This document shows, piece by piece, positions 12,276 through 20,792 of a DNA stretch of 64,000 bases (position 1 is its first letter; each line of letters starts with the position of its first letter). The notes under the pieces are model-generated. The model worked only from the letters and a program-made list of their open reading frames with translations. It was not told where the DNA came from and ran no database searches. Source of the DNA: an uncultured bacterium (GTDB taxonomy: Bacteria > Krumholzibacteriota > Krumholzibacteriia > LZORAL124-64-63); contig CAIWHK010000022.1 in assembly GCA_903912525.1 (NCBI GenBank), positions 19,734-83,733 on the forward strand. Reading direction: 5' to 3'. The translations under genes were made by a program, and so were the position numbers.

Positions 12276-12302
12276 GGCGGCGCGGAACGCGGATGCGACC
12301 TG

Positions 12303-12329
12303 GACCCGGCTTCGGCCGGGTCTTTTTTT
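12303..12329 (+). terminator. rho-independent terminator
   Basis: GACCCGGC-ttcg-GCCGGGTC followed by TTTTTTT. Confidence 0.85.
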
Positions 12330-12363
12330 GCGCCCACTGGTACACCGGGACGCCGCCGCAGGG

Positions 12364-12397
12364 CAAACGGAAGCGGGCGGCCACCAGGGCCGCCCGC
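12364..12397 (-). terminator. putative terminator of the cytochrome operon
   Basis: On the minus strand, a GCGGGCGGCC-ctggt-GGCCGCCCGC stem followed by ttccgtttg. Confidence 0.55.
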
Positions 12398-12422: not shown

Positions 12423-13433
12423 TTAGCCCGGGGTGCGCGAGTTCATGTAGTTGATCGACGACTGCAGCAGGTCGCGGGCGTACGCGGGGTTGTGCACGCC
12501 ATGGCTGCGGTCCTCGGTGCCGATGTACATGAAGTTCCAGATCGCGCCGGCGTCGTCGGCCGGACGGCCGGTGGCCGTCAGCGGCGTGCCCGAGGCGTTC
12601 ACGAAGCCGGCCGTCACCAGCAGGGCCTTGAGGTCGACCAGCAGGCCGTCGATCTCGGTCTGGACGCCGTTGTAGTCGTAGTTGTCGCCGATGTCCTCGT
12701 GGCAGCCGACGCAGGCCTGCGTGTTGTAGACCACGGTCACGCCGTCCTCGCCCAGGGCCGTCACGTTGAACGTGTGGCCGCCCACTTCGTAGGCCACGTT
12801 GCGCATGTGGCAGTTCACGCAACCGTCCTCGTTCATCGTGCGATGGTACGGGGTCTCGGTGTACGTGTAGCCTTCATACTCGTAGCCGTTGGCGCCCATC
12901 AGCAGGTCGCCCTGGGGGCCGTGGTGCGGGCCGTAGCGGCTGTTGATGTTGTTGCTGGACGTGATGTACACGGCCACGTCGCGACGGGCCTGGTGGCAGA
13001 CCACGCAGGTGTTGCCCTTGCCCAGGTCGTAGCTCTCGCCGTTCAGCAGCGCCACCGGGGCGGTGATGCGCAGGCCGAAGTCGCCGTTGCTGTGCGGCGC
13101 GTGGCACGTGAAGCAGTTGATGTTCGTCGGCGTCGTCGTGGCCGTGTAGGTCGTCGCGCCGTTGACGTACTGGATAAAGCCCTCGTTGGCGTGGCAACGC
13201 ACGCACGACGGGTTCGTGCCCTCGAAGACGGTCTCACCCTCGCCGTGACGGCTCTCGGCCCACTCGGTCTGGGCACGGACCACGCTCAGGTCCACGTCGG
13301 AGTGGCATTCGAAGCAATTGGACGGCTGCGGATCTTCCTGCACGATGGTCGTGATTTCCCTGGTGCAGGCCGACAGGGCCAGCAGGCCCACGATGCCGAC
13401 CAAGATCAGTAGATGCTTGCGAGTCAGCGACAT
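12423..13433 (-). CDS. hexahaem c-type cytochrome lipoprotein
   Basis: Lipobox LSAC. Six CxxCH motifs: CFECH, CVRCH, CFTCH, CVVCH, CVNCH, CVGCH. RBS AAGGAGG. Confidence 0.9.
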   Translation of the reverse strand: MSLTRKHLLILVGIVGLLALSACTREITTIVQEDPQPSNCFECHSDVDLSVVRAQTEWAESRHGEGETVFEGTNPSCVRCHANEGFIQYVNGATTYTATTTPTNINCFTCHAPHSNGDFGLRITAPVALLNGESYDLGKGNTCVVCHQARRDVAVYITSSNNINSRYGPHHGPQGDLLMGANGYEYEGYTYTETPYHRTMNEDGCVNCHMRNVAYEVGGHTFNVTALGEDGVTVVYNTQACVGCHEDIGDNYDYNGVQTEIDGLLVDLKALLVTAGFVNASGTPLTATGRPADDAGAIWNFMYIGTEDRSHGVHNPAYARDLLQSSINYMNSRTPG

Positions 13434-13470
13434 TACCTTTCCTCCTTGTACCGGTCGTTTCTAACGCGGA

Positions 13471-15045
13471 TCAGTCCACAGGCAACTTGTAACCGACATT
13501 CAGCGAGATGACGTTCGTCGTGAAGTAGCGGTCGAGCAGGACGTAGTCGTCGTAGTTGTACACGTTGTAGCGCACACTCACGAAGTAGTCCCGGCTCAGG
13601 TCGTACTTGCCGTCGAACGTCAGGATGGATTTCTCGACGTCCAGGTCCTTGCCGAGGTCCAGGTAGGTGACCCCGCCGCCCAACCGCAGCCCCTTGACGC
13701 CGGTCAGGTCGACGCGGGCGGTCACGGTGCTGTTGTCGGCGCGGTAGGCTCCTGCCTGGTCCACGTACTCGTCGTCACTGTAGGCGTACTCGACCGACGC
13801 CGTGCCCCACTGCGTCAGCGCCAGGCGCGTGAAGCCACTGTAGCGCTTCCCGGTGGCGGTGACGTCGAGGACCGGATAGTCGCGATCGCGCTGCAGGAAG
13901 GCGGCGCCGACGGTCAGCCGGTCGTTCACCTTGGCCTGGGCGCTGGCCCGCCAGCGGCTGGACTCGATGTCCTTGAGCAGCGTCAGGCTCTCCTGGTCGT
14001 CACGCTCGCTCGTGGCGTAGCTGGCGCGAAGCTGCCAGCGCGGATCGTGGTACGAGCCGCCGATGCGCCACGTGTTGGTGTCGGTCAGGGTCTTGTCGTC
14101 GTCGGTCGTGGCGTAGCCGTAGCCGGCGAAGAACGAGCCTCTCGCGCGGCGCCAGGTCACGTCGACGTCGTTGCGGGTGCGGTCGGTCTGCAGGCCGGTC
14201 GCATCGCTCTCGATGCGGCTGCCGTCGAACCGGTAGCGCAGCTCGACGTCGTCCGCGGCCTTCACGGTGCCGAAGTACTGGAAGGCCGACGTCGTGCAAT
14301 CGAGCGCCGTGTCGTCCAGCTCCTGCGTCCCGTACGAGGCGCGCACGAAGTGCGAGACCTTGCCCGGGAACAGTAGGCACGGCAGGCTGGCGCGCGCCGA
14401 GATGACGTTCCCGGAGCGGTCCATGCCCGCGTGCAGGTCGTCGGCCAGGCTCGATTTCTCGACGCCGACCGCGAACATCCGCCCGTCCTGGCGGTACTCG
14501 CCCTCCAGGAAGTGCGTCTGCAGCAGGTAGTCGTAGCCGGTCCCCAGCGCCGAGATCGTGCCGTCGGGGATGGCCCAGCGGTCGCCTTCGCGCGCCTGGC
14601 GGCCGTAGTCGGCCGTGAAGCGGAACGAAGAGCCGGGCGTCACGCGCGCGCTGAAGTTCCAGTCGCGGCGCTCGGCGCTGACCTGGTCGTCGACGCTGTA
14701 GAAATGCCGGGACTGGTGGTGGCGCACGCTGAACGTGCCCAGGTCGGCCACGCGGTAGGTGAACATCCCCTGGCCGCCATGGTCGTTCAGGTCACGGATA
14801 TCCAGGTGGAAAGCCGTGCGGTCGCCCGTCGTCCCGTCGAGATTCAGGCGGGACAGGTTCAGCCCGTCGTAGACATTCCAGAACTCGGGCATCGTGCTCG
14901 CATCGCCGGTCGTCTTCTCGACGTAGACCTTCCCGACTTCGAGCGTGCCGCCCACCGTGCCGGCCAGGGCCGGCTGCGTGAGGACCAGGGCCACGACCAG
15001 CAGCGAGCCGGCCGACAGGATCCGATTCATGACTTGGTTACGCAT
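13471..15045 (-). CDS. outer-membrane beta-barrel protein, candidate MtrB/PioB-like porin partner of the flanking cytochromes
   Basis: Signal peptide (LTQPALA/GT), then about 500 aa of alternating-polarity, Tyr/Asp/Arg-rich strand-like repeats. RBS AGAGGGGG overlaps the upstream stop. Family assignment rests on context and composition only. Confidence 0.65.
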   Translation of the reverse strand: MRNQVMNRILSAGSLLVVALVLTQPALAGTVGGTLEVGKVYVEKTTGDASTMPEFWNVYDGLNLSRLNLDGTTGDRTAFHLDIRDLNDHGGQGMFTYRVADLGTFSVRHHQSRHFYSVDDQVSAERRDWNFSARVTPGSSFRFTADYGRQAREGDRWAIPDGTISALGTGYDYLLQTHFLEGEYRQDGRMFAVGVEKSSLADDLHAGMDRSGNVISARASLPCLLFPGKVSHFVRASYGTQELDDTALDCTTSAFQYFGTVKAADDVELRYRFDGSRIESDATGLQTDRTRNDVDVTWRRARGSFFAGYGYATTDDDKTLTDTNTWRIGGSYHDPRWQLRASYATSERDDQESLTLLKDIESSRWRASAQAKVNDRLTVGAAFLQRDRDYPVLDVTATGKRYSGFTRLALTQWGTASVEYAYSDDEYVDQAGAYRADNSTVTARVDLTGVKGLRLGGGVTYLDLGKDLDVEKSILTFDGKYDLSRDYFVSVRYNVYNYDDYVLLDRYFTTNVISLNVGYKLPVD

Positions 15046-15057
15046 TCCGCACCCCCT

Positions 15058-16035
15058 CTAGTGGCCGCCGTGGCACCCGATCGCAAGACAGCCTTGGGGC
15101 TGCAGCGCGGGCGTCAGGAGGAGCCGGTTGGTGTACGAGCCGTGCACGTCGACATGGCATTCGTTGCAGGACACGCCGGCAAAGCGGTCACCGTGCATGC
15201 TGTTCATGTTGTGCCCCGGCACCGTGTGGCACTGCGAGCACAACTGGAAGTGCGGCGCCGCATAGGGCTGCTTCAGCAGCACCAGCTGGGCCGACCCGTG
15301 CGGATCGTGGCAGTTCAGGCAGCCGCCGTCCTCGACCGAGTAGTCGAGGGTCGCGGCATGCTCGAACGGGAACGGCCCGCGCATATTCGCGTGGCACTTG
15401 GCGCAGGTCGCGTTCACGTCGCGGCGGACCGCGCCGGCCATGCCGTCGTCACCCGAAAGGTGGCAATCGGTGCAACGGACCGCGCCCTCCTCGACCGGGT
15501 GGTGCGACAGCTGCGCGAACTGGCCGCGGACGCCGGTGTGGCACCCGTAGCACAGCTCCGGCTGCGAGGCGTGCAGCAGCCCCATGGCGGTACCTTCGTG
15601 CACACTGTGGCAGGCCGTGCAGGACACGTCAGCCGCGGCGTGCGCGCTGAGCGTCTGCTGGTTGACCTGGTGAACGCCCTGGTGGCAGGTCGCGCACACA
15701 GCGGACACTTCCCTGGCACCCAGCTTGGCCGGGTTGGCCATCGGGTTGGCCGAGGGGTCGTCCTGCCAGTGAGCCGGCTGGCCGGCGTGGCAACTGGTGC
15801 AGGAGATGCGGGTGGCCACATCCCCGGCCGCACCCATCAGCACCCGGTGCGGGCTGGCGGCCAGCGTTGCCGCCAGGCCGTCGTGGCAGTCCAGGCAGAC
15901 CGCAGTCTGGCCGGAACCGCCGGCGTCCGTGGCAGCCTCGGCGGCTCCCAGCGGCCCGGCGTTCCACGCCAGGCCGAGGGCGCAGCACAGCAGGCCGCCC
16001 ACGAACCATGACAATTTCCTGAAGTCAGCGTCCAA
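15058..16035 (-). CDS. MtrA/DmsE-family decahaem c-type cytochrome (periplasmic)
   Basis: Ten CxxCH motifs plus a terminal CLAIGCH. GPFPFEH...GGCLNCHDPHGS block as in MtrA/DmsE. TTG at 16035 (GAGG 8 nt upstream) gives a normal signal peptide. The ORF is open up to the ATG at 16149, but that stretch is AT-rich and polar. Confidence 0.88.
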   Translation of the reverse strand: MDADFRKLSWFVGGLLCCALGLAWNAGPLGAAEAATDAGGSGQTAVCLDCHDGLAATLAASPHRVLMGAAGDVATRISCTSCHAGQPAHWQDDPSANPMANPAKLGAREVSAVCATCHQGVHQVNQQTLSAHAAADVSCTACHSVHEGTAMGLLHASQPELCYGCHTGVRGQFAQLSHHPVEEGAVRCTDCHLSGDDGMAGAVRRDVNATCAKCHANMRGPFPFEHAATLDYSVEDGGCLNCHDPHGSAQLVLLKQPYAAPHFQLCSQCHTVPGHNMNSMHGDRFAGVSCNECHVDVHGSYTNRLLLTPALQPQGCLAIGCHGGH

Positions 16036-16112
16036 AGTGGAAACCTCTCGGTTCGGGTTGAGCGCCTCGTCGCGGAATATCCCTAGCGGAGAGTTGGTTG
16101 ATCGGTTGGAAG

Positions 16113-16149
16113 TGTCAAGCGCTTTAGTTGACAAATTAACAATTGTCAA
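16113..16149 (-). promoter_or_regulatory. TTGACA/TGTCAA inverted-repeat array upstream of the cytochrome operon
   Basis: TGTCAA (16113-16118), TTGACA (16128-16133) and TTGTCAA (16143-16149) form nested inverted repeats in an AT-rich stretch about 80-110 nt upstream of the proposed start. Confidence 0.4.
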
Positions 16150-16212
16150 CCAAGTGCCTCCAGATTAATCACTTCCGTGACGATAACGACTCTCGTTTCC
16201 TTCCGCTGGGCG

Positions 16213-16244
16213 ACAAAAAGAAGCGACTCCCGAAGGAGTCGCTT
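16213..16244 (-). terminator. rho-independent terminator ending the six-gene envelope operon
   Basis: Minus strand: AAGCGACTCC-ttcg-GGAGTCGCTT followed by CTTTTTGT. Confidence 0.85.
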
Positions 16245-19454: not shown

Positions 19455-20792
19455 TCAGAACTCCATCGAGTAGCTGACGCCGACGCGGAACCGGGTGTCC
19501 TCGACCCGCGCATAGGAATCCGTGACGAAGGCATCGCCGAAATAGGCTGCAGGATACGGGAACTGGTGCGCAAGCACGCCGCTCAGCTTGGTCAATTCGA
19601 CCGAGGCGCTCAGGCGCCCTGCCCCCACACCGGCGGCCGTGCCGGCCGTGAAGGCGGTCAGGCCCGCATCGCGATCGGCATAGCTGTTGATGTGCCGGAA
19701 CCCGAACCGCAGCGGCATGCCGTTGTAGAACGTGTGCTCGACGCCCATGCGGATGTCGGCGGCGTCCTGCAGCAGCGTCGACGGGTCATCGAGCGTCCCG
19801 TCGCGCAGTTCACTCCAGGGCCGGTACTCGACCTCGAACGTGAACACCGTCGGGAGGTTGTTGCGGGGCCGGAACGCCAGGCCGGCGCGCGCGCACCACG
19901 GGTAGTCGTAGTAGGCGCTGGTCGTCGTGTCGGTGGCCGCCGCCGGCGAGACCGTGAAGGTCTCCTGGCGCCAGTCACCCGTCGACTTCAGGTTGCTCTC
20001 CACCGCGAAGCCCAGGTCCAGGCGCTCGTTCACGCTTGCGCGCAGGCCTGCCGAGGCGCTGAGGCCCGACAGCTTCAGCTCCTGGCTGTTGCGGTAGCTG
20101 TCGTTCGTGCCCGCGTTGTCGAGGTCGATCGAGCTGACCGCCTCGTTCCGCGTGCCGAAGTTGTAGTGGAAGGCAGCCCCGATCGAGACCTTCTCGCTGG
20201 CCTCGGCCGCGGCGCCGAACGAGAGCGCGTGCAGCGTGCCGGTCACCTTGCGTTCGCGCACGGAAATCAGCATGTCACGCGCGGGCTCGCCCGAGCCGGG
20301 CGGGTACGGGCTGGGATTGCGCAGTTCCTCGTAGAACGAGTAGTTGAACGGCAGCCGGTCGGTCAGCGACACGCCGAACGCCACGGCGCGCGGGCCCGAA
20401 CCCACGCGTTTGGCGAAGCCGAAGTCGCTCTGGAAGGAGTGGCTCCGGTTGCTGGCGATGGCCGCGTCGATGACCCAGCTGTCGAAGCTGTCGAACAGCG
20501 GCTGGAAGCGGTCCTCATGCTCCTGGTTGAGCACGATGCCGCCGTCGATCCGCTTGCCCGTCTCGACGACGAGGAACGCCGGGTTGAACACGTTGGACAG
20601 GCCACCACGGTAGATCGCCGTGCCGGTGCCGCCCATGGCGGCGGACTCGGCCCCGATCCACGAGAACTGGTCGCCGTACCTGGTCGTCATCTGGGGCCCG
20701 GCCACCGCCTGACCGGCCACCGCCAGGCTGATCAGCGCCGCCGTGACCACCGTCGCCGCGCCGCTCGGGAAACTGTACTTGCTCGTCTTCAT
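19455..20792 (-). CDS. outer-membrane beta-barrel protein, FadL/PorV-superfamily-like
   Basis: Signal peptide, N-terminal GAESAAMGGTGTA...NPAFL motif, and C-terminal aromatic residue (YSMEF). Confidence 0.65.
   Translation of the reverse strand: MKTSKYSFPSGAATVVTAALISLAVAGQAVAGPQMTTRYGDQFSWIGAESAAMGGTGTAIYRGGLSNVFNPAFLVVETGKRIDGGIVLNQEHEDRFQPLFDSFDSWVIDAAIASNRSHSFQSDFGFAKRVGSGPRAVAFGVSLTDRLPFNYSFYEELRNPSPYPPGSGEPARDMLISVRERKVTGTLHALSFGAAAEASEKVSIGAAFHYNFGTRNEAVSSIDLDNAGTNDSYRNSQELKLSGLSASAGLRASVNERLDLGFAVESNLKSTGDWRQETFTVSPAAATDTTTSAYYDYPWCARAGLAFRPRNNLPTVFTFEVEYRPWSELRDGTLDDPSTLLQDAADIRMGVEHTFYNGMPLRFGFRHINSYADRDAGLTAFTAGTAAGVGAGRLSASVELTKLSGVLAHQFPYPAAYFGDAFVTDSYARVEDTRFRVGVSYSMEF

Follow-up and report, generated by a model that had tools for sequence, protein, structure and literature searches.

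In a 64,000-nucleotide (nt) stretch of DNA from an uncultured bacterium of the Krumholzibacteriota (positions 19,734 to 83,733 of contig CAIWHK010000022.1, assembly GCA_903912525.1; hereafter the window), three adjacent minus-strand genes are best read as encoding an MtrAB-type electron conduit with a new kind of outer partner. Gene A (15058–16035) encodes a secreted MtrA/DmsE-like cytochrome of 325 amino acids (aa) with ten CxxCH motifs, gene B (13471–15045) a 524-aa protein with a signal peptide that is predicted to form an MtrB-like barrel, and gene C (12423–13433) a 336-aa lipoprotein with six CxxCH motifs. The three genes are co-directional, with gaps of 12 nt between A and B and 37 nt between B and C, as reported in a preliminary description made from the letters of the window. 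We put the chance somewhat above even that the trio is a self-contained trans-outer-membrane conduit in which A sits in B and C serves as the outer partner. The same description suspected a poorly described conduit variant and our literature search agrees, having returned generic mtrAB-like mentions and no description of the trio, of the compact barrel, of the extra CxnCH motif of A or of the OcwA-type partner.

A cytochrome of the MtrA/DmsE kind

Protein A carries the ten motifs CLDCH, CTSCH, CATCH, CTACH, CYGCH, CTDCH, CAKCH, CLNCH, CSQCH and CNECH, a terminal CLAIGCH and a GPFPFEH...CLNCHDPHGS block, all of which had been noted at the outset. With its signal peptide, its 325 residues and its ten CxxCH motifs, it has the size and motif content of the MtrA/DmsE family. 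Indeed, the family model that it matches best is TIGR03508 (DmsE/MtrA decahaem; E 5.5e-53 to 8e-53, 179.6–180.1 bits), and it aligns with solved MtrA (6r2q_A) at E 6.2e-26, residues 85–339 of the open reading frame (ORF) falling on MtrA residues 67–324. The alignment is collinear and takes in each of the ten haem motifs as well as the GPFPFEH/CxNCHxPHGS block. Matches to NrfB models are far weaker (E 5e-9 to 6e-6), and the early assignment of A to the MtrA/DmsE group rather than to NrfB is therefore upheld. The chain 6r2q_A is labelled “Cystathionine beta-synthase” in the PDB sequence file; the fold library gives 6R2Q as the Mtr complex, and the label is an error.

All 29 diverse members of the A family that we compared match TIGR03508, the best of them at E 3.4e-54. 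As this is only marginally better than the value for the protein of the window, the family appears from these scores to be a sister clade at or just under the curated boundary of the model. Public annotation pipelines name some of these relatives “DmsE family decaheme”.

Translation of A most likely begins with the TTG at 16035 (MDADFRKLSW). The ORF had initially been drawn from the TTG at 16149, a start displaced by the conserved start and by gene calls: the TTG at 16035 has a GAGAGG site and is conserved as a start in relatives, a 98%-identical protein is 325 aa long and gene calls on a near-identical contig also give 325 aa. Exact-sequence look-ups found no record for A or B of the window, and the 98%-identical relative was used in place.

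Past its last MtrA-like motif A has an extension that ends in GCxxxGCH, the alignment with MtrA ending ~24 residues earlier. The codons of the C-terminal CLAIGCH (Cx4CH) lie at 15070–15090 on the minus strand. C316, G320, C321 and H322 are invariant in the 29 diverse family members, three of which have Cx6CH, and a C-terminal CxnCH is found in 42 of the 43 species-level loci with a complete upstream flank. The invariant histidine after the second cysteine, together with the tolerated changes in spacing, argues for a haem site rather than a disulphide, and this pattern of conservation makes the CxnCH a probable eleventh haem-attachment site. In the Mtr complex as solved, MtrA has its C-terminal haem at the extracellular end (PMC7198977), so the eleventh site of A would lie at the outer mouth of the conduit.

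A compact barrel with a predicted MtrB architecture

B has a signal peptide ending in ALA/G. In an AlphaFold2 model based on an alignment of 44 relatives (pLDDT 86.5) it is a barrel of 26 strands connected by loops of 2–14 residues, with no plug and no N-terminal domain. A Foldseek search of the PDB with this model places MtrB (6r2q_B) at the top (E 1.9e-16, TM 0.78), followed by TonB-dependent receptors and LptD (TM ~0.5, E 5e-9 or weaker), a lead for MtrB of seven orders of magnitude in E-value and 0.3 in TM-score. The link between B and MtrB came only from structure prediction and this fold search. A profile of the B family found no match among PDB sequences, and PF11854 (MtrB_PioB) is matched weakly by 8 of the 44 B relatives (best E 1.5e-6). 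Against 1.84 billion representative proteins the profile gave 183 matches, all of 557 aa or fewer. By the model, then, B represents a distinct compact family with the MtrB architecture.

The preliminary description had taken B for an outer-membrane barrel well short of MtrB. A barrel is indeed predicted, and short it is, with 524 aa against ~650–700; yet it is not narrower, its strand count being that of MtrB. B lacks the long loops and ~650-aa length of MtrB (its longest loop has 14 residues, and the MtrB chain of 6r2q has 649 residues), and it is short because its loops are trimmed while the number of strands is unchanged. With neither plug nor loops, a barrel of 26 strands would stand open if left empty; A, encoded alongside, would be its obvious occupant. 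We regard it as highly probable that A threads through B.

A hexahaem lipoprotein resembling OcwA and OmhA

As first described, C bears an LSAC lipobox and six CxxCH motifs. The lipobox cysteine, Cys23, is invariant in 39 sequences, and in the alignment of C relatives the six motifs and the conserved histidines are invariant. Residues 141–249 match PF22113 (MtrC/MtrF domain II/IV; 43.6 bits, cut-off 30), a domain carried by nearly all C relatives. The N-terminal part weakly matches NapC/NirT (PF03264, E 7e-6), a match to NrfB is also weak and the score against NrfA (PF02335, 22.1 bits) falls under the cut-off of 24.1; C contains no CxxCK catalytic motif.

In a single-sequence search of solved structures the best match of C is OcwA (6I5B). 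The family profile returns OcwA (6i5b, E 9.5e-12) and OmhA (6qvm, E 3e-7), with NrfA and octahaem nitrite reductases (ONR) at E 5e-5 to 1e-3, and solved MtrC, MtrF, OmcA and UndA are absent from the fold matches and from the profile matches up to E 1. The AlphaFold2 model of C (pLDDT 82.6) is nearly all helix and coil, its strands being two of 3 residues each. OmhA is its only significant fold match (E 2e-4), and its C-terminal helices (254–274, 292–307 and 316–332) match the three-helix bundle of the superfamily. Moreover, haem motifs 2–6 of C align with the last five of OcwA.

OcwA and OmhA both come from Gram-positive iron reducers, where they act as terminal reductases at the cell surface (PMC6703420; PMC7829351), and they belong to clade 3 of the NrfA superfamily as divided in PMC9250108. 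The OcwA pair HH380/381 is placed above haem 5, whose distal site is open, in a pocket exposed to solvent (PMC6703420). In the alignments, the HH of OcwA and OmhA falls on H170 and H171 of C, which are part of a GPHHGPQ sequence and show little or no variation. C has five other conserved histidines (63, 114, 197, 220 and 314) for its five other haems, which would fit one open and five bis-His haems; an assignment of all six haems as bis-His was dropped after the alignment with the His-His pocket of OcwA.

The organization typical of MtrC and OmcA, ten haems in two pentahaem domains that alternate with two beta-barrel domains, is not that of C. Nor does C have the nine or eleven haems of OcwA and OmhA, or an N-terminal module bearing a second open haem. 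Judged by its sequence relationships, C is a pruned, lipid-anchored cytochrome of the OcwA/OmhA type within the NrfA superfamily and not a miniature MtrC. Of the small hexahaem surface partner proposed originally, the six haem motifs stand, but the protein is of the OcwA/OmhA type rather than a small MtrC, and we rate an outward-facing position only a little above an even chance.

Conservation and co-evolution of the trio

Scanning one genome per species, we found relatives of B at 51 loci in Krumholzibacteriia, Eisenbacteria, Latescibacteria, Gemmatimonadota and unnamed metagenome-assembled genomes. The nearest named relatives of the window are Krumholzibacteriia, in line with the early hint of a non-proteobacterial host. 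A, with ten CxxCH motifs and the C-terminal CxnCH, precedes B in 42 of the 43 loci with a complete flank, the one exception looking frameshifted, and C follows B in 47 of 48 (six motifs in 45 of them, five plus a Cx4CH in two). B lies directly 3' of the mtrA-like gene, as in the order A-B-lipoprotein noticed in the window, and this A-B order recurs in all loci with usable flanks. Clustering of neighbouring ORFs across 52 loci gave no other gene family common beyond the six closest genomes, and most of the seemingly recurrent neighbour clusters are shadow ORFs of A, B and C in high-GC DNA. The conserved unit is the A-B-C trio, kept together in nearly every related genome while its flanking genes vary.

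Pairwise identity matrices for 39 loci are tightly correlated between A and B (r = 0.89), whereas those of C correlate with A or B at only ~0.43, as would be expected if A and B evolve together as a core and C evolves faster or can be exchanged. Locus L005 is 90% identical to the window in A, 86% in B and 68% in C; for L007 and L008 the values are 75%, 72% and 81–82%. These figures suggest recombination or exchange, or else accelerated evolution, of C in the three loci. Frequent duplication of MtrC and gene flow between Mtr groups have been reported (PMC8805035).

Several loci call for individual comment. A is split into two five-haem ORFs in L052 (4945–6381), by a frameshift or an assembly error, and in L039 (7518–8899) B is followed by no six-haem gene, a four-haem ORF lying ~700 nt further on. 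L008, L014, L029 and L041 have taxon labels (Fibrobacteraceae, Vicinamibacterales, Hyphomicrobiales) at odds with their sequence neighbours, which probably reflects mis-binning or mislabelling, the alternative being horizontal transfer.

Respiratory genes beside the trio in related genomes

On a Latescibacteria chromosome (L042, 1966–4847), genes for a Rieske protein, a cytochrome b and a nine-haem cytochrome c are followed by A, B and C in the same direction. The Rieske gene recurs in seven loci (L042, L021, L032, L039, L045, L049 and L053), and the Rieske/cytochrome b/nine-haem set may be what connects the quinone pool with the conduit. In the Krumholzibacteria loci L002 and L003 the trio adjoins either COX1/COX2 and alternative complex III genes, as it does in L003, or a 505-aa NapC/NirT-type cytochrome. 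ORFs with 19, 19, 35 and 42 CxxCH motifs adjoin the trio in L016 (8583–11279), L021 (2224–4860), L025 (2096–4720) and L032 (1466–4720), respectively; these large multihaem proteins may be extended outer or periplasmic wires that work with the trio. Such neighbours tie the trio to respiratory electron transport and do not fix the direction of flow.

Locus layout and regulatory signals

The AT-rich control region described upstream of A is a putative promoter/leader region at 16036–16220 (minus strand), where the GC content is 50% against ~68% for the whole window, and it contains a conserved element and the GAGAGG ribosome-binding site of A. The element, TTGACAATTGTTAATTTGTCAACTAAAGCGCTTGACA (16113–16149, minus strand), contains an imperfect palindrome, TTGACAA-N8-TTGTCAA, and a second TTGACA. 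It is kept upstream of A in six relatives whose B proteins are 71–98% identical to that of the window, and this conservation makes it a candidate that may serve as promoter or operator. A promoter scan found no match to the sigma-70 consensus in the leader region, and Rfam held no match for the element; sigma-54, FNR and Bacteroidetes-type promoters fit it poorly by eye and are not claimed.

The upstream boundary of the operon is an intrinsic terminator found by a terminator scan, a hairpin and T-run at 16221–16244 (minus strand) that belongs to the upstream ClpB-like AAA+ gene. Its stem is preserved in relatives by compensatory changes (GCGACTCC/GGAGTCGC versus GCGGCTCC/GGAGCCGC). At the 3' end the operon likely finishes at the hairpins in 12302–12395, at the boundary with a convergent zinc-ribbon gene. 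The hairpin terminator of the preliminary description holds in part: by sequence reading and the terminator scan, a GC-rich hairpin does follow C at 12375–12395, but the T-tailed hairpin (12302–12323) faces the convergent plus-strand gene. With that T-run lying on the plus strand, the end of the minus-strand operon at this place is presumed.

The flanking genes are unrelated housekeeping genes, for a 5'-nucleotidase, an AAA+ protein, a PTS EIIA and RsgA, and the only CxxCH-bearing ORFs in the window are A and C. No tRNA genes and no Rfam family at the gathering threshold were found in the whole window. At its high GC content (~68%) most long ORFs of the window carry long shadow ORFs on the opposite strand.

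Proposed mechanism and alternatives

In the mechanism that we propose, A would be a secreted wire of ten, probably eleven, haems seated inside B, the 26-strand barrel almost without loops. With a barrel so nearly loop-less, A would serve as plug and wire both. C would lie on the outer face beside the C-terminal end of A, where the extra CxnCH haem would bridge A to C. Extracellular substrates (Fe(III)/Mn(IV) minerals, humic matter or electrodes, for instance) would give electrons to C or take them from it, perhaps at an open haem with a His-His lining, comparable to haem 5 of OcwA. The link to the quinone pool would be encoded elsewhere in this genome.

Several observations weigh against this account. 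We infer the placement of A inside B and of C outside from family, fold and synteny. A scores just under the curated cut-off of TIGR03508 (192.2 bits), and its family has only ten invariant non-motif histidines in the 29 members, which would leave the eleventh haem without a conserved distal histidine ligand within A. The B protein of the window has no Pfam or NCBIfam match, PF11854 included, and among the 1.84 billion representatives its family profile found no MtrB-sized protein and no bridge to MtrB/PioB. C has no recognisable surface-export signal, and the NrfA and ONR members of its wider superfamily are periplasmic in Gram-negative bacteria. Finally, the 64-kb window encodes no further cytochrome and no quinol dehydrogenase. 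The eleventh haem of A, the open haem of C and the direction of flow are, likewise, things that we infer.

One alternative keeps the architecture and reverses the current: Fe(II), reduced minerals, cathodes or partner cells would supply electrons for an aerobic or denitrifying chain. The COX1/COX2 and alternative complex III genes beside the trio in L003 favour this, as do the Rieske and cytochrome b genes ahead of it in L042; in addition, MtoAB and MtrAB are considered reversible (PMC10734462) and Cyc2-type iron oxidases have been reported from the same phyla (PMC9769843). However, oxidase genes adjoin the trio in some loci only, a dedicated outer cytochrome is the classical mark of a reducer (the FeGenie rationale, PMC7005843), OcwA and OmhA are terminal reductases (PMC6703420; PMC7829351), and members of these phyla have been described as putative heterotrophs and organic-matter degraders (PMC9769843; PMC11495043). 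We lean modestly towards outward flow, in a heterotroph respiring extracellular acceptors, and allow electron uptake a considerable chance that stays short of even.

The main rival concerns where C resides. A and B could form a two-component conduit like MtoAB/PioAB, with C held in the periplasm on the inner leaflet of the outer membrane or on the inner membrane, either as a relay to the N-terminal haem of A or as an NrfA-like reductase of a soluble substrate that uses imported electrons; the extra C-terminal haem of A would then be an exposed contact point. The periplasmic habit of Gram-negative members of the NrfA/ONR/OcwA superfamily speaks for such a position, as do the weak NapC/NirT match at the N-terminus of C and the retention of a His-His pocket typical of a substrate-accessible haem (PMC6703420). 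Moreover, the invariant C-terminal CxnCH of A could by itself be the terminal site, and the trio mostly occurs without an inner-membrane partner, which suits a self-contained unit leading from an outside donor to a periplasmic acceptor. On the other side, the lipoprotein cytochromes co-encoded with the barrel in known three-gene conduits, MtrC and OmcB, are external (PMC7198977, PMC4245776), C has its nearest solved relatives in two cell-surface reductases, it has no CxxCK and scores under the NrfA cut-off, and its decoupled, faster evolution suits an exposed component. A periplasmic C seems to us unlikely on balance, though it deserves to be taken seriously.

That there is no conduit at all, B being an ordinary large porin or transporter and A and C periplasmic carriers for an unrelated respiratory enzyme, would agree with the missing curated MtrB/PioB match of B and with the TonB-dependent receptors and LptD among its weaker fold matches, but is very improbable given the lead of MtrB over all other folds, the absence of a plug or N-terminal domain from B, the strict A-B-C synteny in four phyla (A and B being 12 nt apart in the window), the close co-evolution of A and B, and the lack of a conserved reductase gene in the neighbour clustering.

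Returning to the conduit with C as its outer partner, a more specific version can be put forward tentatively, at a likelihood well below even. The trio would represent a vertically inherited Mtr-type lineage across several FCB-related phyla, a 17-haem hybrid in which an eleven-haem wire places an extra CxnCH haem at the outer mouth of a loop-less 26-strand barrel, and in which a pruned hexahaem lipoprotein of the OcwA type, with an open haem of catalytic style, may ligate that haem or have it stacked directly on itself. If true, it would join a Gram-negative MtrAB core to a type of surface reductase solved so far only from Gram-positives, and would make Krumholzibacteriota, Eisenbacteria and Latescibacteria unrecognised players in mineral or electrode redox cycling.

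Significance

Mtr-type conduits are the best-understood route for electrons across the outer membrane. The trio would carry the MtrAB core into at least four uncultured and little-studied phyla, common members of sediment, soil, aquifer and activated-sludge communities, and would make them candidate respirers of iron, manganese or humics, or iron oxidisers. It would also be a natural minimal version, its loop-less barrel being ~125 residues shorter than the MtrB chain of the solved complex, and its outer partner, of different evolutionary origin, would constitute a new pairing. Standard marker tools would give such loci a vague “DmsE family” label or miss the barrel. A systematic survey found MtrCAB in only three phyla, with a single Gemmatimonadetes case that has a canonical MtrC (PMC8805035), and metagenomic papers note “mtrAB” or “MtrABC” matches for Gemmatimonadota, Zixibacteria and comparable groups, or numerous multihaem proteins for Krumholzibacteriota, with no architecture given (PMC11316326; PMC9769843; PMC7005843; PMC11495043; PMC8478452). 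For bioelectronics a compact three-gene conduit of 3.6 kb would be an attractive part, and the eleventh haem and the open His-His haem are concrete predictions that are cheap to test.

Comparison with known systems

With MtrCAB of Shewanella (6R2Q) the trio shares a periplasm-to-surface decahaem of ~300 aa (a role proposed here for A), homologous to A over its ten haems, a 26-strand barrel (predicted here for B) and a lipoprotein cytochrome in the operon. It differs in a barrel protein of 524 aa instead of ~650–700, with trimmed loops and no MtrB profile match, in the additional invariant C-terminal CxnCH of A, and in C, which has six haems, no beta-barrel domains and a place in the OcwA/NrfA superfamily rather than with MtrC/OmcA. 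The gene order is A-B-C here and C-A-B there, and the hosts, instead of Proteobacteria, are candidate phyla that the literature places with the FCB superphylum (PMC9769843).

The MtoAB and PioAB systems of Fe(II) oxidisers resemble the trio in having a gene for an MtrA-like decahaem followed by a barrel gene, and are possibly bidirectional. As originally described, they have no outer lipoprotein cytochrome, although some Gallionellaceae genomes add MtrC. PioB and MtoB are much longer than B, and the accessory proteins MtoD, CymA/MtoC and PioC are absent here. A porin combined with a periplasmic multihaem cytochrome and a multihaem lipoprotein on the outside is also the plan of the Pcc conduit of Geobacter (OmbB-OmaB-OmcB) and of PCC3/Uet. 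The Pcc cytochromes, however, have 8 and 12 haems (PMC4245776), against ten, with a probable eleventh, and six here, and those of PCC3 have far more; our analysis detected no sequence relationship of the trio to Pcc, PCC3 or Uet. As candidates for the closest system, Uet (a predicted 28-strand barrel; eleven CxxCH motifs) and PCC3 (much larger cytochromes) were rejected.

DmsEFAB and other MtrAB paralogues likewise combine an MtrA/MtrB core with a terminal module other than MtrC, and the best model for A is that of the DmsE family; the outer partner is a molybdoenzyme there and a small multihaem cytochrome here. That cytochrome has its counterparts in OcwA of Thermincola potens (6I5B) and OmhA of Carboxydothermus ferrireducens (6QVM), with which C shares the last five haem motifs, the His-His pair and the C-terminal three-helix bundle. 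OcwA and OmhA have nine and eleven haems and come from Gram-positive hosts without an outer membrane, whereas C is a lipoprotein that has six haems, lacks their N-terminal module and is coupled with a porin-cytochrome core.

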